This document shows, one piece after another, positions 2,701 through 41,274 of a DNA stretch of 41,274 bases; position 1 is the first letter of the stretch, and each line of letters opens with the position of its first letter. Under the pieces are notes generated by a model, which saw only the letters and a list, made by a program, of their open reading frames with translations, did no database searches and was not told the origin of the DNA. Source of the stretch: a bacterium (GTDB lineage: Bacteria > Patescibacteriota > Saccharimonadia > Saccharimonadales > JAUPVS01); assembly GCA_029780855.1 (NCBI GenBank), contig JAKOXV010000024.1:1-41274 (forward strand), in the 5' to 3' direction. A program made the translations under genes and the position numbers.

Positions 2701-3924
2701 CTACTCCCGGCGGAGCGCATCTATTGGATTGATGTGTGCAGCTCGTCGGGAAGGGAAGAATACTACTAGTAGACCGACGATAACCATAAACCCTATCATC
2801 AACGCCACTAACCAAAGTGGCGTAGCGAAAAGCGTAAAGTTTTGGGATACGCCGCGATGGTGGGCATAGTTGTTAAGAATTACATTTAGGACCTTTCCAA
2901 CAATAACTGCACCGATGATTCCAATGATTGCTCCGGCGATGGAGAGTAGTACTGCTTCAAAAATAAATAGCTTACGCATATCACGGTTTCTACCCCCCAA
3001 TGCCATCATCAGACCAATCTCTCGCGTTCGCTCAAGTAGAGATATGGTCAGGGTATTAAACATACCCAGCACAGCAACAATCATGCCAATAGCACCAAAC
3101 CCAACGAGGATAAAGTTAAAGAACTTAAATATTTGGTTTACTTGATCCACCGTGTCAATTGGTGAACTGGTAGCAAAACCAAGGCTCTCAATCTGTCTCC
3201 GCAGCGGGTTAACGTTTTCACTTTTATCTGCCTCTATCTTGATCTGGTTATACACTTTGACACCAGCCACCTGAAACTCAGCGTTAGGCATGAACACTTC
3301 ACTACCAGATCCGGAATCAATTACGCCTATTACCGTGTAGGTATCACTCATCTCTGTTTTGTCTGCACTTCCACTTCTTAGGGGGATCCTAATTTCCAAC
3401 TTTTTATTGATCGCATTTTTGGCGTCTTTAATTCCTATGGATTCAAGCAAACTGTTATTTACTAGCACTGATTTTGTATCGGTTTTCTTCAAAAGTCGCC
3501 CCTTTGAAACACTCAGATTGGACATAACCTGGTAGTTTTCATCCACACCGTACACGATCGTATCTACTTCGCTACCTTGTAACTTTAAACTACCAGGGAA
3601 GGAGTAAGATGCACCGATGGTACCCACGTGCGGTAGGTTCTTTACTTTGTTGAAACTATCTTGATCCAGCTTCAGGATTCTCGAATTGGGAGTAGAGATA
3701 TCAATGGATTTTATTGATTGATTACCAATAATCTGGCTCGTCACTAGGTTTTGCAAACCTAACCCAAAGGATAGAAGAAAGAAAATTGCACCGATTCCAA
3801 TGACTACTCCAAAAATCGTTAAGAACGTTCTGAGCTTCTTATTGACCAGATTTCTAAATGCAATATGGGTCAGCACTCGGAATGAGATGCTTCCTTTTTT
3901 CGCTTTTTTTTCTTGCTCAGCCAT
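2701..3924 (-). CDS. ABC transporter permease (MacB/FtsX family)
   Basis: RTFLTIFGVVIGIG, ERTREIGLMMALG and PSRRAAHINPIDALRRE motifs. Confidence 0.93.
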   Translation of the reverse strand: MAEQEKKAKKGSISFRVLTHIAFRNLVNKKLRTFLTIFGVVIGIGAIFFLLSFGLGLQNLVTSQIIGNQSIKSIDISTPNSRILKLDQDSFNKVKNLPHVGTIGASYSFPGSLKLQGSEVDTIVYGVDENYQVMSNLSVSKGRLLKKTDTKSVLVNNSLLESIGIKDAKNAINKKLEIRIPLRSGSADKTEMSDTYTVIGVIDSGSGSEVFMPNAEFQVAGVKVYNQIKIEADKSENVNPLRRQIESLGFATSSPIDTVDQVNQIFKFFNFILVGFGAIGMIVAVLGMFNTLTISLLERTREIGLMMALGGRNRDMRKLFIFEAVLLSIAGAIIGIIGAVIVGKVLNVILNNYAHHRGVSQNFTLFATPLWLVALMIGFMVIVGLLVVFFPSRRAAHINPIDALRRE

Positions 3925-24931: not shown

Positions 24932-26152
24932 TTATTCGTACCGTAGCGCTTCGATAGGGTCTTTGCGTGCAGCAATTGCGGCCGGCATAACTCCAAAAAT
25001 TATACCGATACACCACGCCGCTCCCGTTGCACCCACAATAACCGGAACGGTAATAACAGGGTGTAGGTTCGTACCGATTCTAATCCCAAAGTTAACGAGC
25101 AGCGCAACTGAAACGCCAACTAGTCCGCCAAAGAAACTGAGTACCGCCGCCTCTACTAAAAATTGATTGAGAATCTGCCGATTCGTCGCGCCGATCGCTT
25201 TTCTGATTCCGATTTCTCGGGTTCGCTCTGTAACCGAAACCAACATTATATTCATAATTCCAATTCCTCCCACGAGTAGAGCGATACCTGCAACCGCCGT
25301 AACTAACTGGGTTATGAGATCGACACTTTGCTGGGCGCTCGCTAAGTTTTGGGCTTGGGTAAGTACCGTAAAATCTTGTTGACCGGCATGTGATACAAAC
25401 AGACGATGATTAATATCCTGAGCAAAGGCATCGGCCTGTTTACTATCCTCCAGCTTCACAATAATGTCGGAAATTGGCACCGGTGCGTCAGCAAGCTGTT
25501 TGCTAACGTTATAGGGAATAAATATAGCTTTGTTGAGGTCTGCACCCGGAAGTAACGTATCGCTCCCAAAATCTTCAAATACTCCCCGTACAATAAAATC
25601 CTGACCACGTAGTTGGAGCGTCCTACCAATAGGTACGTTTTCCTTAAATAATTGTTCGGCAACCGATTTTCCTATAACCACAACCTCACGGTTATTCTCG
25701 CCGGTGCTAAAAAATACCCCGAACTCAACCTTATGCCCGATTGCAGTGGCAAATTCGTCAGTAGTGGCAATAACCGTACTCCCGGGTAATGTTTTGCCGT
25801 CTACCTCAGGAGTTCCACTACCTGCACCAACCGGCACGGCAGCCGAAACTCCTGGAGTTTGTGATACGACTGAAAGATCTTTTTCTGAAAGTGAAGCATT
25901 TCCCTTTGAAAAAACATTATTTGTAGCGAGACTTGGAAGTGGCTGCTCTGCAGGGGCCCCACTTTTAACAATAACCAGATCTTTTCCAAAAGAATTGATC
26001 TGCTTAGATACTTCATTTTTGACACCCTCACCTAAGCTCACCGTAGTAACTACTGATACAATTCCAATAATTATCCCTAGCATTGTCAGAAAACTGCGCC
26101 ACTTGGAGGTACGCAATGAAGCGATGGCAATTTTTACGTCACCTTGCATCAT
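24932..26152 (-). CDS. ABC transporter permease (MacB family)
   Basis: RSFLTMLGIIIGI, GGIGIMNIMLVSVTERTREIGIRKAIGA and DPIEALRYE. Confidence 0.93.
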   Translation of the reverse strand: MMQGDVKIAIASLRTSKWRSFLTMLGIIIGIVSVVTTVSLGEGVKNEVSKQINSFGKDLVIVKSGAPAEQPLPSLATNNVFSKGNASLSEKDLSVVSQTPGVSAAVPVGAGSGTPEVDGKTLPGSTVIATTDEFATAIGHKVEFGVFFSTGENNREVVVIGKSVAEQLFKENVPIGRTLQLRGQDFIVRGVFEDFGSDTLLPGADLNKAIFIPYNVSKQLADAPVPISDIIVKLEDSKQADAFAQDINHRLFVSHAGQQDFTVLTQAQNLASAQQSVDLITQLVTAVAGIALLVGGIGIMNIMLVSVTERTREIGIRKAIGATNRQILNQFLVEAAVLSFFGGLVGVSVALLVNFGIRIGTNLHPVITVPVIVGATGAAWCIGIIFGVMPAAIAARKDPIEALRYE

Positions 26153-27012
26153 AGCTTTCTGTTCCTTTGCTTTGCCGAGGAGCGCTTTTTGGTAGTTTTA
26201 CGTTTGCGAGTTTTAGGTTGCTTACCAGGCAGAGCGTTCATGAGCGCTGAAACGCCCGCCAGATCATCTTCTTCTGTCTTTTTCTGAACGCTAAAAATAA
26301 ATCGTTTTGCTCGCGCAGGCACTTTGCCGACATCAGTCTGTTCGTCATGCATAATCATGCCATCTTGCATATAGATAACTCGACTAGCGTAGCGAGTGAG
26401 GTTCGGGTTGTGTGTTACAAGTAAAATAGTGTTGCCGCTCTTATGGATATCACTCAGCAGTTCCATAACTAGCAAGCTTGCGGCGGTATCGAGGTTGCCG
26501 GTTGGTTCATCGGCGATAATGACATCCGGATTATTGACGAGCGCTCGGGCAATGGCTACCCGTTGCATCTGTCCACCACTCAGTTGTCGAGGAAAATAGT
26601 ACTCTCGATCTTCCAGTCCGACACGCTCCATAACAACGCTTGCTTGCTTCAATCTCCGACCATGCAGCATGCCTTTGTACGCAAGCGGTAGAGCGACATT
26701 TTCTAACGCCGTGAGCTTAGGCAAAAGATTAAAGGACTGGAATACAAAACCGATTTTATCTCGACGTATTTTGGCCTGGCGTGAAGCGCGCAAACGGGCG
26801 ACTGAGCGGCTGTTAAAGTTGTACTGCCCATGCGTCGGTCGATCTAGCATGCCGATTATATTCATCAGCGTAGATTTACCGGAACCGCTTGGTCCCATAA
26901 TTGCCACAAACTCTCCTTTTTCTATAGAAATGGAAATTTCATCCAAAGCTACGGTTGTGGCATCGCCGAAGCCGTACAGTTTACTGACGTCTTTCAATTC
27001 AATAATTGGCAT
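26149..27012 (-). CDS. ABC transporter ATP-binding protein (MacB/LolD family) with basic C-terminal tail
   Basis: GPSGSGKST, LSGGQMQR and ADEPTGNLD. Start probably MPIIELK at 27012. Confidence 0.92.
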   Translation of the reverse strand: MPIIELKDVSKLYGFGDATTVALDEISISIEKGEFVAIMGPSGSGKSTLMNIIGMLDRPTHGQYNFNSRSVARLRASRQAKIRRDKIGFVFQSFNLLPKLTALENVALPLAYKGMLHGRRLKQASVVMERVGLEDREYYFPRQLSGGQMQRVAIARALVNNPDVIIADEPTGNLDTAASLLVMELLSDIHKSGNTILLVTHNPNLTRYASRVIYMQDGMIMHDEQTDVGKVPARAKRFIFSVQKKTEEDDLAGVSALMNALPGKQPKTRKRKTTKKRSSAKQRNRKL

Positions 27013-27098
27013 ACTTTGTCTAGTGTACCTCTGATCCAACAGATTGCACAAGGTGTTTTTGTAGTAAAATTTCAGTTATAATGGTCGGGTTACACTGA

Positions 27099-27188
27099 GG
27101 AGAGGTGTCCGAGTGGCTGAAGGAGCACGCTTGGAAAGCGTGTGTGCGGGCAACCGTACCGCGGGTTCGAATCCCGCTCTCTCCGCCA
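27099..27188 (+). tRNA. tRNA-Ser(GGA)
   Basis: GGAGAGG acceptor stem, anticodon arm CACGC-TTGGAAA-GCGTG, long variable arm, GGTTCGAATCC T-loop and encoded CCA. Confidence 0.97.
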
Positions 27189-27229
27189 TTAGGAATATAT
27201 ACTATAATGTTGTGTGATATAGTTAAGCT

Positions 27230-27553
27230 ATGACTGAATATGCTGAACGCTTTTATGCGATAGCTCAAGAACAACAGCACACTCCTAGACGCGCACATCC
27301 AGGTGTACCGGCATTTATTGCTCGGCTTTTTAGGTCCCAGCGACAGTGCGAGCTTGATGCCGTCCACCAATCACTTAATACTAAGAAAAATGAACTGTGG
27401 CAAAACCTATCGTCAGAGGAAAAGGATTACTATGACCCGTTAGCCGTGCTCATTGGCCCGCATGGTCCTGGCATTCCATCCGAAGGCTGGTCCGACACCT
27501 TCGATGAAGAAACGGCACGCAAGATACTCGAATTTCTTCCTGAAGAAGATTAG
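27230..27553 (+). CDS. Hypothetical protein (107 aa)
   Basis: Clean ORF with TGnTATAGT 6 nt upstream of the ATG; no family recognised. Confidence 0.6.
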
Positions 27554-27568
27554 CAACAGAACGAAGTG

Positions 27569-27624
27569 ACGCAGTTTCGTCGTTTACGACTCGTCAGCAT
27601 GATTCATGTACTCATGGACTGCGT
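27569..27624 (-). ncRNA. Type III hammerhead ribozyme (HHR1)
   Basis: Minus strand reads ACGCAGUC^CAUGA-guacaugaa-UCAUG-CUGACGA-GUCG-uaaa-CGAC-GAAACUGCGU. Complete CUGANGA and GAAA core, GUC triplet, perfect stems I (5 bp), II (4 bp) and III (7 bp). Predicted cut between 27617 and 27616. Confidence 0.92.
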
Positions 27625-27809
27625 AGGTGAGAAGAGGTAATGGGATCGCGTGAGCGATCAACCAATAGAGTTCTCCTCACAGGAGATTAGCGTTCTCCCG
27701 AACGGGTTGTTTTGTTATAGGCACTACGACGCCCAAACACGTACACCGAACCACCGGCGGCTCAAGTTTACTTGTTTTATTAGCCTTGAGTAGCTAGCAC
27801 ATCATCCGA

Positions 27810-28505
27810 TCAGTCCGACGTCTCTCCGTCATCGATGACGGCAGTCGCCTGACCGTTGGAGCCATGGCCGTTCATGGAGCCGTTGCCGAGGCTCTTCATG
27901 AGCATGGCTCCGAGTCCACCGACGATGTCCTGGTTGCCCTGTGGGGTGATGTGCATCACCTTGAGCTCCATCGGGTCGACTTGTTGCATCGCCGTCTCCG
28001 TGCCGTGGGAGATGATCTCTCCGAACGTCTCGGTGGGGGTGATGACAACGAAGCCGATGGGATGGATGGGGGCAGTCGTGCCTGGCGGCAGAACGGGACG
28101 CTGGACACCTCGCATGCCGCCGTTGTACAGGAAGTGGCGGACGTCCTCGAAGTTGCCGAACTCCGCCTTGTAGGTGGCGGACTTGGCGCCCGTCGGAAGC
28201 GGCACCCCGACCTGCGAGATGACCAACCCGATGTGATCAGGGGGGACCTGAACCCACGGGTAGCGCTTGACCGAGTAGAACGGCCAGACCTTGATGCGCA
28301 TGCCGGGCATGAGCAGGTCGGCCTGGTAGCCGGCCTCACCGTTGAGGGCGATCAGGCTGTTGCTCTTCTTGCCGAAGCGCTTGGTGACGAGACCGACCTG
28401 GCTCGGGTCGATCGCGTGGAATGAATTCTTGAGCACCAGCAACACGAGGAGTGCCACCAGTACTACGGGGATGATGATTTGGAAAGGAACGCTGTCCAGG
28501 TTCAT
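27810..28505 (-). CDS. GC-rich flotillin/SPFH-family-related membrane protein, apparently internally deleted (231 aa)
   Basis: Start MNLDSV at 28505 behind AGAGAAAGAGG. TM helix, then VGLVTKRFG, IALNGEAGYQADLLMPG and RGVQRPVLPPG as recalled for N-termini of long flotillin-like proteins. No Band-7 core or coiled coil visible. A sample line is 41/60 GC. Confidence 0.7.
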   Translation of the reverse strand: MNLDSVPFQIIIPVVLVALLVLLVLKNSFHAIDPSQVGLVTKRFGKKSNSLIALNGEAGYQADLLMPGMRIKVWPFYSVKRYPWVQVPPDHIGLVISQVGVPLPTGAKSATYKAEFGNFEDVRHFLYNGGMRGVQRPVLPPGTTAPIHPIGFVVITPTETFGEIISHGTETAMQQVDPMELKVMHITPQGNQDIVGGLGAMLMKSLGNGSMNGHGSNGQATAVIDDGETSD

Positions 28506-28547
28506 TGAACCTCTTTCTCTGTTGGTGAATGGAGGACAAGCTAAAAA

Positions 28548-28576
28548 ATTATAGTATCTTTTTGTAATATAGTCAA
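28548..28576 (-). promoter_or_regulatory. Near-consensus sigma70 promoter TTGACT-N17-TATAAT for the SPFH-like gene
   Basis: -35 at 28576-28571, -10 at 28553-28548, spacer exactly 17 nt. Confidence 0.85.
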
Positions 28577-28649
28577 TATAATGTGCCTCATACAATACAG
28601 CTTCCGCTTCCTTAGCAGCACAGCCTGAAGCTGCTATACTTTTGCATAT

Positions 28650-29447
28650 ATGAAGATTTATAGTTGGAATGTAAACGGCATACGTGCCGTAGTGCGCAAA
28701 GAAGCACTCGAACCGTTTATCAAGAAGCACCAGCCAGACATCCTATGTCTCCAAGAAACAAAGGCAGAGCAGGGTCAGGCGGTAATTGATCTGCCCGAGT
28801 ACGAGGAATACTGGAACTCATCTAAGACCAAGAAAGGTTACTCCGGAACGGCGATATTCACAAAAATCAAGCCGATTTCCGTCCACAACGATATTCCAGA
28901 AAAGTTTGTAAAGTCAGCCGGACTGCTTGCCGATAGTTATGGTCATAGCAATGACGAAGGACGGGTGATGACAGCAGAGTTTAAAGACTTTTTTCTCGTT
29001 ACTGCATATACACCAAATGCCAAGGATGACCTAACCCGCATCCCGTTACGAGAAAAATGGGATCAGGCGATGATAGCGTACTGTGCAGACCTGCAAAAAA
29101 AGAAACCTGTCGTGTACTGTGGAGATATGAATGTGGCGCATACGGAAGACGACCTAGCTAACCCAAAGCCAAATATTGGCAAAAAAGGGTTTACCGCAGA
29201 AGAACGTTCAGGTTTTGACGACTGGCTGGCAGCTGGGTTTGTTGACACGTTCCGTATGTTTAAACAAGGAAATGGCTACTACACCTGGTGGAGCCATTTT
29301 GCCAATGCTCGCGCTCGTAACGTTGGCTGGCGGATAGACTACTTCCTCGTTTCCGATGCGCTCAAAAGCAACGTAAAGACCGCTGATATTCACCCCGACA
29401 TTACCGGCTCGGACCACTGTCCGGTCAGTATAGAATTGGAGATATGA
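28650..29447 (+). CDS. xth: Exodeoxyribonuclease III / AP endonuclease
   Basis: SWNVNGIRA, LCLQETK, GYSGTA, GDMNVAH, GWRIDYF and GSDHCP. Confidence 0.95.
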   Translation: MKIYSWNVNGIRAVVRKEALEPFIKKHQPDILCLQETKAEQGQAVIDLPEYEEYWNSSKTKKGYSGTAIFTKIKPISVHNDIPEKFVKSAGLLADSYGHSNDEGRVMTAEFKDFFLVTAYTPNAKDDLTRIPLREKWDQAMIAYCADLQKKKPVVYCGDMNVAHTEDDLANPKPNIGKKGFTAEERSGFDDWLAAGFVDTFRMFKQGNGYYTWWSHFANARARNVGWRIDYFLVSDALKSNVKTADIHPDITGSDHCPVSIELEI

Positions 29448-29929
29448 TGGACACCAAGGAATGTTCGTTAGTATTCTTGCGTCGAGACGACGAAATACTC
29501 TTAGCCATGAAAAAACGTGGTTTTGGAGCAGGTCGCTACAACGGCGTTGGAGGCAAGCTTGACCCTGGCGAATCGGTTGAGCAGACCATGATCCGAGAAT
29601 GCGAGGAGGAAATCGTCGTAACACCTACCGAATACGAAAAGGTAGCCTATCATGATTTTGTCGGTGAAGATGAGGAGGGTAACAAATGGCGGATGTTAGT
29701 ACATGCTTTTGTCGCCACAGCCTGGCAAGGTGATCCTGTTGAAACAGAAGAAATGGCACCTGAATGGTTTAAGCTCAGCAATATACCATACGACAGTATG
29801 TGGTCAGATGATCGCTACTGGCTACCACAAGTTTTGGCGGGAAAATACGTAATGGGAAGATTCACGTTCAACAAAGACGATGAGATGCTCGATAAACAGG
29901 TGGAAGTAGTCGAACACTTAGAGAGCTAG
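29444..29929 (+). CDS. NUDIX hydrolase (8-oxo-dGTP diphosphatase, NUDT1/MutT-like)
   Basis: LLAMKKRGFGAG..NG.GGK...GE......IRECEEE Nudix box; EEMAPEWF and IPY..MW.DD.YW. Confidence 0.9.
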   Translation: MMDTKECSLVFLRRDDEILLAMKKRGFGAGRYNGVGGKLDPGESVEQTMIRECEEEIVVTPTEYEKVAYHDFVGEDEEGNKWRMLVHAFVATAWQGDPVETEEMAPEWFKLSNIPYDSMWSDDRYWLPQVLAGKYVMGRFTFNKDDEMLDKQVEVVEHLES

Positions 29930-29961
29930 CGCAATCCGCGGCGAGTGCTACACTGGTACGT

Positions 29962-30630
29962 ATGAGAGAAAATGTCGCCGCAGGACAATGGAATACGACC
30001 TGTGAAGAAGTAGAATCGGAGATTGCACCACCGGTTACCTTTGTGGAATCGATTCTTTTTCATCTTTCCAAACACGCCAATGCGCGAGGACTGCACATCG
30101 GGTGCGACGACGGTAGAAATTTCTTCCCACTGCTGGATGCGGGGATAGATATCTCAGGCGTTGACGTTTCAGATTCGGCCGTGCAGCAGTTGCGCCAAAG
30201 TCGTCCTGACCTTGCAGATAAAATCAGTTGTATCAATGTTCTCGAAATTAGCTCCGAACAATACGATTTTTTGGTCTCCATAGAGGCGTTCCAGCACGGC
30301 AGTTGGGAAGTCGTCGAACAGTATTTTGAAAAGTGCGACGAGCTGCTGAAGGCGGGAGGATTACTGTTCTTACGCGTTAACGCATGTAATACAGAATTGA
30401 ATCGTCAGCACACCGTTACGCAGATGAGCCCGAGCGGCAGCTTCACGGTACGTTGCTTAGAAGGCGAAGAATCGGGTCAAGAAATCCACTTTTTTTCCCA
30501 ACAAGAGCTGGGTTTTCTAGCCGAAGATTTTGGGTTTGATATTCTCTCGCCACCGCAGGAGATACAGAGCGTCAGAGGGGATGGAACGACTAGCAGTCAA
30601 TGGGAGACCGTATGGCAAAAGTGCATATGA
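29962..30630 (+). CDS. Class I SAM-dependent methyltransferase
   Basis: LHIGCDDGRN (motif I variant), GVDVS, YDFLVS and LKAGGLLF. Confidence 0.8.
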   Translation: MRENVAAGQWNTTCEEVESEIAPPVTFVESILFHLSKHANARGLHIGCDDGRNFFPLLDAGIDISGVDVSDSAVQQLRQSRPDLADKISCINVLEISSEQYDFLVSIEAFQHGSWEVVEQYFEKCDELLKAGGLLFLRVNACNTELNRQHTVTQMSPSGSFTVRCLEGEESGQEIHFFSQQELGFLAEDFGFDILSPPQEIQSVRGDGTTSSQWETVWQKCI

Positions 30631-38934: not shown

Positions 38935-38964
38935 AAAAAAACTCCACGCAACGATACCGTAGAG
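38935..38964 (-). terminator. Intrinsic terminator for the GC-rich 114-aa gene
   Basis: Minus strand CUCUACG-N9-CGUGGAG (one G-U) followed by U7. Confidence 0.7.
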
Positions 38965-39020
38965 CATACTGTTTGTCATGTAAGTAAAAATGGCAGATGA
39001 GTTTGGAGAGCGATACGCAA

Positions 39021-39084
39021 GTGGTGGCAGGGAAGCCGATTGTTTGTCGCGACTGCAACGAAAACTTTGGCTCCCTGCCACCAC
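39021..39084. other. Long 3'-UTR hairpin with 13-bp perfect stem
   Basis: GTGGTGGCAGGGA (39021-39033) pairs with TCCCTGCCACCAC (39072-39084), 11 nt downstream of the minus-strand stop codon. Confidence 0.75.
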
Positions 39085-39095
39085 CATGGATCTGC

Positions 39096-39440
39096 TCAGA
39101 CCACGAGCGGCGGATCGAGCACGAAGCCCTTCACGCGCAGGATCTCGTGCGCCTCGCGGATGAAGAGCATCAGCTGACGGACGGACCGGCTGGTCTTGAT
39201 GGCCAGGTTGCCGGGCTCGGCTCCCTTCAGGGTGAGGGAGAACTCCGTGACGTCTCCGAGATCGAAGATCTCCCGGATGGCCTCGCGGATCGGGCCGGGC
39301 ATGCGCTCGCCGCTCTCGTTGGGACGATCGAGCGAGGTGAAGTGGCCGTGTCCGGTCACGTAGTTGCCGTCGAGGGGGATATGAACCCATCCTCCACGCC
39401 AGAGTCTCACCCGTGGTTTCACTGCGGTGCTTCCTGACAT
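39096..39440 (-). CDS. GC-rich hypothetical protein (114 aa)
   Basis: Start MSGSTAVK at 39440 behind GAGAAAGG. Codons are mostly G/C-ending (sample line 40/60 GC). Has its own promoter and terminator; no family recognised. Confidence 0.7.
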   Translation of the reverse strand: MSGSTAVKPRVRLWRGGWVHIPLDGNYVTGHGHFTSLDRPNESGERMPGPIREAIREIFDLGDVTEFSLTLKGAEPGNLAIKTSRSVRQLMLFIREAHEILRVKGFVLDPPLVV

Positions 39441-39468
39441 AGTCGGGGTACCTTTCTCTCGCATTGTA

Positions 39469-39519
39469 TGGCTACAGCTACCACCGGTAAGGGAACAGTA
39501 CCAGTAATAGCTATAGCCA
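39469..39519 (-). promoter_or_regulatory. 21-bp 5'-UTR hairpin
   Basis: UGGCUAUAGCUAUUACUGGUA pairs with UACCGGUGGUAGCUGUAGCCA. All four non-Watson-Crick positions are G-U on the minus strand, which points to an RNA-level structure on that strand. Confidence 0.75.
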
Positions 39520-39577
39520 ACACACTCATCTGCCAAGGTGCGTTTGAGAGCTTAAAACTCAATCAAACTTGAACTTT

Positions 39578-39857: not shown

Positions 39858-39915
39858 TGCTACCTTTCGTCCTTTTGGACTCATCAGCGTAAGCACACAC
39901 TTACGGAGGATAGCA
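39858..39915 (-). ncRNA. Type III hammerhead ribozyme (HHR2)
   Basis: Minus strand reads UGCUA-u-CCUC^CGUAAG-ugugug-CUUACG-CUGAUGA-GUCC-aaaa-GGAC-GAAAGG-UAGCA. Complete core, CUC triplet, stem I 6 bp, stem II 4 bp, stem III 8 bp with one bulged U. Predicted cut between 39906 and 39905. Confidence 0.92.
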
Positions 39916-40046: not shown

Positions 40047-40295
40047 TCAGCCGTTGGCGACCTTCCCGGCGACGACGACGACGGCACCCGGCTCGAGCTG
40101 GTCGTCGGGCTCGATCTGGCGGCCGTTGGCCGTGATGGCCTTGCCGCCGGAGATGTCCACCCCCGCCTTGTCCAGGTACCCACCGGCGGTGAGCCCCGGC
40201 TCGTAGTCGAGGGTCTGGCTGTCACCGCCGAACTCGGCGATCCGAACCGTCCCGGCCGGGACGACCTCGTCCGGCGTCAACACGTCTGCTGCCAT
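40047..40295 (-). CDS. Ubiquitin-like (beta-grasp, ThiS/MoaD-like) protein ending in Gly
   Basis: 82 aa with beta-grasp pattern (T....L...G.......ITANG......QL.PG.VVVV) and C-terminus KVANG. SD AAGGAG; directly downstream of an E1-like gene. Confidence 0.8.
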   Translation of the reverse strand: MAADVLTPDEVVPAGTVRIAEFGGDSQTLDYEPGLTAGGYLDKAGVDISGGKAITANGRQIEPDDQLEPGAVVVVAGKVANG

Positions 40296-40308
40296 GATGC
40301 ACTCCTTC

Positions 40309-40965
40309 TCACGTTGTTGAGAACTGCATGGTCTTGAGGTCCGACATGATGTTGCTTCGGTACGACTCCTTTCTAATGAAGAGGGTGAGCTGCGCCACCA
40401 TCAGTCCCGCGAGGGTGGTGGGTGGATGAATCACCGTCCGGGCTGCACAAGGCAGCTCGGCCGCTTCCTCATCCGGGAAGAGCCACTGCTCGTACTCCGC
40501 CTGGGCATCGAAGTCCGACGGATTGAGTGACAGTAGCTGGAACTGCTCGCCACCGATGCGACCGTCCATGAAGAACGGCACCAGTGGGTTGAACTTCACC
40601 GCCTGCCAGATGCCCATACGGCTGGCCATGGAATCCACACCGGCGATCACCACACCACTGAGTTCTGACGTCGAGGTGACGTGCTCCTCGTGGATGGTGA
40701 CCTCACAGGTGGAACCCTGGCGCTCGACAAAATCCATGGCCGCTTTGGCCTTGGACATGCCGATGTCGTCGGGACGGTAGATGAGCTGGGCCGGGATGTT
40801 GTGCGGCTCCACCTCATCACTGTCCCAGAGCACCAGATCCTTGATGCCGAGCTTCATCAGCGGCAGCAGTACGGCAGAGCCGATACCGCCCAGGCCGACG
40901 AGGTGCACCGGCCAAGCGAAGGCCTCGGGATCGAAGATCTTCAACTGATCACCGTAGTCGATCAT
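40309..40965 (-). CDS. ThiF/MoeB/E1-family adenylyltransferase
   Basis: VGLGGIGS, WDSDEVEPHNIPAQ, IG.SKA, GVDSM.SR and DGRIGG. Candidate catalytic Cys in AELPCAAR; no CxxC zinc sites. Confidence 0.9.
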   Translation of the reverse strand: MIDYGDQLKIFDPEAFAWPVHLVGLGGIGSAVLLPLMKLGIKDLVLWDSDEVEPHNIPAQLIYRPDDIGMSKAKAAMDFVERQGSTCEVTIHEEHVTSTSELSGVVIAGVDSMASRMGIWQAVKFNPLVPFFMDGRIGGEQFQLLSLNPSDFDAQAEYEQWLFPDEEAAELPCAARTVIHPPTTLAGLMVAQLTLFIRKESYRSNIMSDLKTMQFSTT

Positions 40966-41274
40966 CAGTCATCACCGACCCTCAGAGCAAGCGGCTCCAG
41001 GGAACCGGCGAACAGCAGCACATCATCCTGCCTCACCGAACGGTTGGGCAGGAGCGGACGGTGCTGCTTGACCTTCCGGGCGATCTCCCGCCGGCACTCG
41101 TCCTGGATGAGGACATCCGAGGGAACCCGCACCCGCAGCTGGAGCGGCGTCCAAGCCCTGTAGGGCCTGAACATGTCCAGACGCAGATCGAACTCCCCGC
41201 GCTTGTTCAGCACCAAGCTGACCATCCAGTCCGCCTGGTAGTCCTCGATGTTCCGAAGATCCACCGAGGAGAAG
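40965..41274 (-). CDS. JAB/MPN-domain metallopeptidase, 3' part only (runs off window end)
   Basis: The frame is open to the window edge and begins FSSVDLRNI...WMVSLVLNKRGE. This fits the S-x2-D tail of the JAMM motif and the following strand. The HxH lies outside the window. TGATG overlap with the E1 start. Confidence 0.65.
   Translation of the reverse strand, partial: FSSVDLRNIEDYQADWMVSLVLNKRGEFDLRLDMFRPYRAWTPLQLRVRVPSDVLIQDECRREIARKVKQHRPLLPNRSVRQDDVLLFAGSLEPLALRVGDD

Follow-up and report, generated by a model that had tools for sequence, protein, structure and literature searches.

The stretch of DNA analysed here (the window) spans bases 1 to 41,274 of contig C15 from G000, a Saccharibacteria genome of 872 kb in 24 contigs, with about 46% GC and 97.8% completeness. 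On its minus strand lies a small GC-rich gene with its own promoter and a structured 3' untranslated region (UTR) that ends in a type III hammerhead ribozyme, here called HHR1, facing a convergent open reading frame (ORF107) and a tRNA-Ser gene. The genes of the window are bacterial in kind, with Pfam matches of its ORFs to ABC/FtsX transporters, MMPL, cytochrome bd, sortase and GltX, and a cmscan of the entire window against Rfam at gathering thresholds gave three matches, two tRNAs and Hammerhead_3 (RF00008). The elements of the hammerhead-ended unit are as follows, with scores for RF00008 and for R1, a covariance model built from 18 MAFFT-aligned hammerheads of the order to which G000 belongs.

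28548..28576, minus strand: sigma-70-type promoter TTGACT-17-TATAAT, 11/12 consensus matches, in AT-rich DNA
27810..28505, minus strand: GC-rich ORF, 231 aa, N-terminal transmembrane segment, no Pfam match
27790-27761, minus strand: CUCAAG/CUUGAG hairpin of the 3' UTR
27759-27744, minus strand: CGCCG/CGGUG hairpin, predicted by RNAalifold, compensatory changes at 2/5 pairs
27699-27681, minus strand: GGGAGA/UCUCC hairpin, all six pairs invariant in four homologous UTRs
27680-27627, minus strand: long GUGAGGAGA...UCUUCUCAC hairpin adjoining the ribozyme, with an inner GAUCGC-ucac-GCGAUC stem
27569..27624, minus strand: HHR1, type III hammerhead ribozyme (RF00008 48.9 bits, E 6.5e-8; R1 60.6 bits)
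27624-27618 / 27575-27569, minus strand: HHR1 stem III, ACGCAGU / ACUGCGU
27617, minus strand: predicted cleavage nucleotide C17 of the GUC triplet, with the cut after C27617
27616-27612 / 27602-27598, minus strand: HHR1 stem I, CAUGA / UCAUG, with a 9-nt loop
27597-27591, minus strand: HHR1 core CUGACGA
27590-27579, minus strand: HHR1 stem II, GUCG-UAAA-CGAC, with a UAAA loop and G10.1-C11.1
27578-27576, minus strand: HHR1 core GAA

By sequence and predicted fold, HHR1 is a genuine and complete type III hammerhead. It covers positions 1-54 of the 54 of the RF00008 model and carries the conserved core C3-U4-G5-A6-N7-G8-A9 together with G12-A13-A14. A27575 pairs with U27618 as A15.1-U16.1, the canonical pair that Perreault et al. 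2011 (PMC3088659) used as a criterion for rejecting candidates, and the GUC triplet conforms to NUH, C17 being H17. Folded in isolation, the minimum free energy (MFE) and centroid structures are both the hammerhead (-14.6 kcal/mol), and all three stems are retained by the MFE structure of a 253-nt context. The initial annotation, made from the sequence, had described a type III hammerhead with a GUC site on the sense strand of the gene, which is borne out, and the 5' product end that it placed at 27617 agrees with the position of C17. The ribozyme sits on that strand 185 nt past the stop codon and directly after the long hairpin. A chance match was rejected in view of covariation, recurrence and the homologous UTRs described below.

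The gene that HHR1 caps has a GC content of about 60-67% in a genome of 46%. Homologues of its 231-aa product were found in 3 of 200 other sampled genomes of the order (G020, G088 and G128); they are 53-63% identical across residues 1-198 to 1-200, and their open frames span 678-695 aa. Alignment shows the 231-aa protein to be the N-terminal ~199 aa of a ~680-aa protein joined in frame to its last ~33 aa; relative to the full-length Band_7/flotillin-like gene it thus bears an in-frame internal deletion of about 450 aa. The Band_7 domain, at aa 332-513 of a full-length relative, falls inside the deleted part and is absent from the 231-aa protein, which has no Pfam match even at E 0.1. Its earlier description as SPFH-like is therefore true by descent only: the homology to Band_7 genes stands, and the SPFH/Band_7 domain itself is gone. 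PADLOC gave no match for the Band_7 proteins.

All four hairpins previously pointed out upstream of the ribozyme are present on the minus strand, and no terminator-like site or U-tract was found on that strand from the stop codon (27812-27810) to the ribozyme end at 27569, again as first noted. The long hairpin is by far more stable than expected for its composition (-22.5 kcal/mol, z = -4.96; 0/200 shuffles as stable), and its 3' arm is the CU-rich tract UCUUCUCAC. This tract can also be paired with the G000 5' UTR near the Shine-Dalgarno sequence (-15.3 kcal/mol; 4/300 shuffled UTRs as good). Pairing of the two ends is strong in the cassette at C15:66856 (-23.9; 0/300 shuffles), weak in the one at C15:67720 (z = -0.77) and not seen in the three homologous Band_7 cassettes (z = +0.2 to +1.3), the start codons of G020 and G088 being uncertain in this comparison and the cleavage sites of the two C15 cassettes a few nt off. 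Since the CU tract is the 3' arm of the local hairpin and is kept as such by covariation, we favour the local hairpin over end-to-end pairing.

This ending is shared with related genomes. The ~240 nt from stop codon to ribozyme, together with the ribozyme itself, align with the DNA behind the full-length genes of G020, G088 and G128, which carry hammerheads at these positions:

L039 3773-3830: hammerhead behind the full-length Band_7 gene of G020
L040 1243-1300, minus strand: hammerhead behind the full-length Band_7 gene of G128
L041 2173-2229, minus strand: hammerhead behind the full-length Band_7 gene of G088

In the alignment of the four UTRs, GGGAGA..AAUCUCCUGUGAG and CUCACCUAC form invariant blocks. 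Of the 45 pairs that RNAalifold predicts, 12 show compensatory changes, among them pairs of the outer stem of the long hairpin, where such changes keep the pairing in G020, G088 and G128. The CUCAAG/CUUGAG stem was not predicted by RNAalifold from these four UTRs; its counterparts as read from the alignment are AUCCG/CGGAU, UUUCG/CGAAA and GUUCGC/GUGAAC. Within the ribozymes, stem III of the relatives reads ACCGA/UCGGU or ACACA/UGUGU and stem I CACGG/CCGUG or CAUGG/CCAUG, covarying with HHR1, which is the sole copy of this cassette type to have the canonical A15.1-U16.1 pair and a GUC site. The genes that flank the cassette differ among all four genomes, so that the sites are non-syntenic, a promoter-like site of its own precedes each copy at the corresponding position, and similarity stops right past stem III. 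The unit shared by the four genomes therefore runs from promoter through ribozyme.

The gene itself appears to have come from outside the phylum. For the full-length protein of G020 the nearest relatives in the genome collection searched are from Acidimicrobiales, Microthrixaceae and Iamia (67-77% identity), and the other Saccharibacteria copies are only 55-63% identical to it. A maximum-likelihood tree, from which L087 and L088 were left out on account of internal stops, places the hammerhead-type Saccharibacteria copies and those of Acidimicrobiia in one clade (98/99), with their order unresolved and long Saccharibacteria branches, that of the window gene included (0.71). Given the high GC of the gene in a 46% GC genome, base composition being the one basis for the direction, we infer that Saccharibacteria were the recipients of a transfer from Actinobacteria. 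Among 80 loci returned with this gene, R1 (E<=1) matched 4/5 from Saccharibacteria, three of which duplicate G020, G088 and G128, and 0/75 from other phyla; a sensitive Rfam scan of 11 actinobacterial loci likewise found no ribozyme of any family. In the fifth Saccharibacteria copy (L083) a classical hairpin and U-tract terminator follows straight after the stop codon, in the place of the hammerhead. Taken together, these observations argue that the ribozyme ending is a Saccharibacteria addition, interchangeable with a terminator. Locus L081 has an unrelated UTR and a common clade-type hammerhead at 2886-2940, with U-U at 10.1/11.1 (CUGAUGAU...UGAAA), which is perhaps degenerate. Two actinobacterial loci carry a tRNA gene some 270 nt downstream of their Band_7 homologue (L067 3606-3677, L069 2818-2889), and in L070 (~3557-3611) there are only sub-threshold tRNA-like matches (tmRNA 3' part, Plastid-psbl-rps4).

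HHR1 belongs to a larger population of such elements. According to R1, G000 holds exactly four hammerheads, all on C15 and within about 41 kb; a loose core regular expression matched 18 times genome-wide, and the covariance model confirmed these four. Besides HHR1, which stands alone at 12 kb from the next, they are:

39860..39913, minus strand: HHR2 (RF00008 29.2 bits; R1 64.2 bits)
C15 67365-67419, plus strand: third hammerhead of G000 (R1)
C15 68078-68132, plus strand: fourth hammerhead of G000 (R1)

The last two are 713 nt apart, and each of the four trails a same-strand GC-rich ORF or operon. In the alignment underlying R1, 90.4% of cells pair, compared to 64.6% in shuffles (0/500 as high) and 34-47% in slid controls, and 15 of the 18 pairs, spread over all three stems, change on both sides. 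With RF00008 at E<=0.01, 18 of 61 relatives have matches, and a single genome of the 61, G000 itself, reaches the Rfam cut-off, so that annotation at gathering thresholds would miss these copies. R1 (E<=0.001) finds hammerheads in 58 of 151 sampled genomes of the order, or 49 of the 131 of high quality, with up to 14 per genome and often in tandem, and in 19 of 151 genomes of a phylum-wide sample when G000 and two genomes of the same order are counted.

The surroundings of these hammerheads follow a stereotyped layout. We examined non-duplicate contexts from related genomes, the four of G000 and one row (L006) from the unpublished genome G040 among them, with ORFs taken crudely from stop to stop; no result depends on L006 by itself, and the figures are descriptive and carry no statistical test. 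In all 57 of 57 contexts an open frame of 60 or more codons on the same strand ends no more than 600 nt upstream (median gap 93 nt), and the median GC falls from 56% in the frame to 49% for the locus and 40% in the 150 nt directly downstream. The 90-nt segment just ahead of the ribozyme has a median fold z of -4.5 (84% below -2; controls -0.63 and 11%), and the 40 nt nearest the ribozyme hold 62-69% pyrimidine, with CU motifs at 2.43 as against 0.53 in controls. A run of at least five T within 40 nt after the ribozyme occurs in only 5/56 contexts, and a promoter-like site downstream in 10/56. A convergent open frame ends within 200 nt in 27 of the 56, so the convergent layout seen at HHR1 recurs. 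The module, that is, a GC-rich ORF, a stable hairpin, a CU-rich tract, a hammerhead and then AT-rich DNA, is widespread in the order, and in Saccharibacteria it looks like a standard "ending" of acquired genes.

We consider it somewhat more probable than otherwise (a probability of roughly 0.55, judged from sequence) that this self-cleaving unit forms the 3' end of the mRNA and insulates the gene against read-through, in effect replacing an intrinsic terminator. HHR1 would close a horizontally acquired, self-contained transcription unit that runs from a sigma-70 promoter through the GC-rich ORF, a ~190-nt structured 3' UTR and the hairpin with its CU-rich 3' arm to the hammerhead, with unrelated, AT-richer DNA downstream. 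The ribozyme would fold during transcription and cut after C27617, leaving an mRNA closed by the long hairpin and some 10 further nt that terminate in a 2',3'-cyclic phosphate, and a read-through RNA with a 5'-OH end that carries the ribozyme body. A cyclic-phosphate, hairpin-closed end is a poor substrate for the phosphorolytic PNPase, and in Bacillus the 5'-OH end left by self-cleavage of glmS is attacked by RNase J. By analogy, the upstream product may resist PNPase and the downstream product lie open to RNase J, in which case the module would both set and stabilise the mRNA terminus and free the foreign gene from its coupling to antisense read-through into ORF107 and tRNA-Ser. The enzymes of G000 fit this scheme: the genome has PNPase, RNase J and RNase Y but gave no match for Rho_RNA_bind, RNB (RNase R/II) or RtcB, and of the two 3' exonuclease families searched only PNPase turned up. 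For a role in 3'-end formation speak the position past the stop codon, the hairpin, the lack of a U-tract, the conservation of UTR and ribozyme in three further genomes and the terminator in their place in L083.

The initial annotation had likewise proposed that cleavage sets the mRNA 3' end, adding that it removes the overlap with the convergent gene at 27230-27553. The first part is supported by the position, the conserved UTR, the L083 terminator and the recurrence of convergent neighbours. The second part is not supported: cleavage spares the polymerase and alone does not remove the overlap, and a terminator-like hairpin with a T-rich tail on the plus strand (27691-27704), 138 nt past the ORF107 stop codon, lies inside the UTR, so that the two convergent transcripts would overlap anyway. 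The convergent partner is, moreover, an orphan ORF. The plus-strand hairpin shares positions with the GGGAGA/UCUCC hairpin, in the 5' arm and the loop of the latter, and with it the 3' UTR may serve both convergent transcripts.

Several points weigh against a ribozyme-made 3' end. Cleavage by itself does not halt RNA polymerase, and the type III layout leaves the ribozyme body on the downstream fragment. HHR1 clears the Rfam gathering cut-off of 48.5 by 0.4 bits, a marginal score, and its fold energy is ordinary (z = -1.29; 23/200 shuffles as stable). The hammerheads of G020, G088 and G128 have U15.1-A16.1 and an "AC" site in place of the canonical A15.1-U16.1 and NUH, and may represent a naturally occurring active variant or else a fold that is conserved but inactive; if inactive, conservation of the module would need a reason besides cleavage. 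No hammerheads were found in the closest family-level kin (0/8 with RF00008, 0/3 with R1). The context counts are not independent, the genomes being related and the four copies of G000 included, and in 9 of 56 contexts a same-strand ORF starts within 40 nt past the ribozyme, so that some hammerheads stand between cistrons and are not unit-terminal. Finally, the capped gene, internally deleted and without its Band_7 domain, is a deletion remnant, and the unit may be decaying.

An extension of 3'-end formation by cleavage would include the release of the polymerase. Hairpin and type III hammerhead could act as "ribozyme terminators", a transferable ending of acquired actinobacterial genes, in which self-cleavage would cap the mRNA with a cyclic phosphate and pass the nascent 5'-OH RNA to RNase J, which would then dislodge the polymerase as a torpedo. 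We regard this as speculative and rather unlikely; if true, it would amount to ribozyme-triggered termination in a lineage in which Rho was not found, and would provide a function for chromosomal bacterial hammerheads.

The neighbours of the unit on the plus strand are:

27099..27188, plus strand: tRNA-Ser(GGA) (Rfam), bounding a variable slot that holds ORF107 and the cassette
27230..27553, plus strand: ORF107, convergent orphan of 107 aa, stop codon 15 nt from the ribozyme, no Pfam match

A search of 5.8 billion proteins for homologues of ORF107 returned only ORF107 itself, and among 200 other genomes of the order a single one gave a weak match (E 7e-7). In family-level kin (L146-L153) an amino-acid-kinase gene (pyrH-like, ~237 aa) occupies the slot bounded by tRNA-Ser(GGA) and xth, the tRNA-Ser itself being seen in 2/8 of these loci, and in G000 the same slot (window 27189-28649) holds ORF107 and the hammerhead-ended cassette. 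No pyrH-like gene was found by tblastn with two pyrH-like queries in all 24 contigs of G000, and no remnants were found in 27100-28700 either of the slot's pyrH gene or of the 255-aa gene that trails the ribozyme in G088 and G128. A look for RNA data sets that include 27200-28700 returned none. Contigs of three DNA runs and of one metatranscriptome run, compared with 26000-30000, showed no joints, ends or variants within the ribozyme, the metatranscriptome run covering the tRNA alone and thus bearing neither way on expression. An organellar (plastid or mitochondrial) origin of the window was rejected, since the sub-threshold "Plastid-psbl-rps4" match lies antisense to the tRNA-Ser and the genes present are bacterial.

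The variable slot and the promoter-to-ribozyme unit at four non-syntenic sites, with homology stopping exactly at the ribozyme, raise the possibility that hairpin and hammerhead are the signature of a mobile cassette, serving as an end-recognition, recombination or packaging site for a cassette system (cf. integron attC) or a phage or plasmid vehicle, with RNA cleavage secondary. Tandem units in several genomes and the foreign composition of the capped gene would fit, as would the presence of another gene in the tRNA-Ser/xth slot of family kin. However, no match to a tyrosine or serine recombinase, an rve integrase or a reverse transcriptase was found on contig C15; the single Phage_integrase match of G000 is on C9 and its Resolvase matches are on C10 and C17, RVT_1 and rve have none, phage and integrase Pfam families matched 0/33 window ORFs scanned, and neither direct repeats nor a conserved 5' boundary beyond the promoter were seen. 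Moreover, the strictly conserved catalytic core and the RNA-type covariation of the stems point to selection on RNA, and we hold a purely mobile role to be unlikely. A functionless relic, in which HHR1 persists from a once-functional Band_7 cassette that has become a decaying pseudogene, appears similarly improbable. The deletion of about 450 aa that takes out the Band_7 domain, the long branch of the gene (0.71) and the absence from family kin of both the Band_7-type gene (0/5) and hammerheads would all be expected of such a relic, yet the reading frame, the promoter (11/12), all UTR hairpins and the canonical ribozyme core are intact, and HHR1 alone among the copies of its cassette type combines a canonical A15.1-U16.1 pair with a GUC site.

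Cleavage could instead matter for the RNA downstream, giving it a defined 5' end or exposing a ribosome-binding site, much like an intercistronic processing site or the synthetic RiboJ insulator. HHR2 lies 5 nt and the hammerhead at C15:68078-68132 2-4 nt ahead of an ATG, a 255-aa ORF begins 17-23 nt past the ribozyme in G088 and G128, and the 9/56 contexts with a close same-strand start are of the same kind; 5'-end making is real for some other copies of the hammerhead. For HHR1 it is very unlikely, because the minus strand past the ribozyme is the antisense of ORF107 and the tRNA and has no credible ORF, and in the four homologous cassettes the ribozyme moves with the upstream gene while the downstream DNA varies. 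Type III hammerheads also drive retrozyme-like and circular-RNA elements in plants and animals, in which cleavage is followed by ligation, and the tandem hammerheads 713 nt apart further along C15 recall such an arrangement. The HHR1 unit has a single ribozyme, though, RtcB ligase and reverse transcriptase were not found in G000, and for clustered bacterial hammerheads spliced or circular products were undetected according to Perreault et al. 2011 (PMC3088659), making a circular RNA at this locus extremely improbable.

Bacterial hammerheads have been known by the hundreds since 2010-2011. According to Perreault et al. 2011 (PMC3088659), many lie near integrases and prophages, often flanking single genes or short blocks, and a processing of long phage transcripts was suggested, with their function called unclear. 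The prophage-associated clusters resemble the present case in that hammerheads lie between or after genes of variable identity and are proposed to yield gene-length mRNAs. HHR1, in contrast, has no prophage or integrase context and resides in the chromosome of an ultra-small Saccharibacteria host, as part of a stereotyped module with its own promoter, a foreign GC-rich ORF and a CU-armed hairpin, behind a gene family that is ribozyme-free in actinobacterial relatives. With the viroid, satellite and retrozyme hammerheads of RF00008 it shares the core, the three-way junction open at stem III and the GUC site; the clade differs in its short loops (loop I mostly 4-5 nt; loop II AAAA or UAAA), and the element is chromosomal, single-copy per unit and outside circular replicons. 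Intrinsic terminators are matched in the position past the stop codon and in the stable GC-containing hairpin, and L083 uses a real one there, but HHR1 has no U-tract, the ribozyme follows the hairpin, and the 3' end would come from RNA cleavage and not from polymerase release. Unlike an integron cassette, the unit ends in a hammerhead instead of an attC site, attC models not having been searched, and the only tyrosine recombinase is off the contig. In the glmS ribozyme with its RNase J1 decay and in RiboJ insulators, self-cleavage gives a 5'-OH open to RNase J and separates the fates of co-transcribed segments. Those elements act in 5' UTRs, whereas HHR1 stands at the 3' end of its unit and responds to no known ligand.

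A full-text literature search found no paper that links hammerhead ribozymes with Saccharibacteria; co-mentions of hammerhead and Patescibacteria looked unrelated by title and abstract opening, and by the same standard none for hammerhead, gene cassette, bacterial and self-cleaving looked relevant. The stereotyped module on chromosomal acquired genes in Saccharibacteria is new, and so is the natural series behind one gene family of a canonical hammerhead, a variant hammerhead, a terminator and nothing. These observations tie the motif to a precise, repeated place, namely the terminus of acquired, self-contained units of high GC in a reduced genome in which no Rho was found, and the natural series of endings on one gene family makes the purpose of bacterial hammerheads directly testable. 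Formation of the 3' end by the ribozyme, if confirmed, would illustrate how foreign genes are integrated into the expression system of an ultra-small symbiont.

Two further features lie towards the end of the window. Between gltX and the HHR2 unit is another GC-rich island (window 38951-39550, about 58% GC) with overlapping ORFs on both strands and no Pfam match. HHR2 itself is the last element of a GC-rich operon, and the ATG in front of which it lies (39853) opens a small low-GC coiled-coil-like ORF. The operon (40047-41274; L154 1048-3902) comprises four minus-strand genes of 438, 206, 218 and 82 aa, of which the 438-aa product is of unknown function, the 206-aa product has a weak Prok-JAB match and the 218-aa product is ThiF/E1-like with a weak PADLOC match to BilD; this gene content suggests a ubiquitin-like conjugation or defence set.

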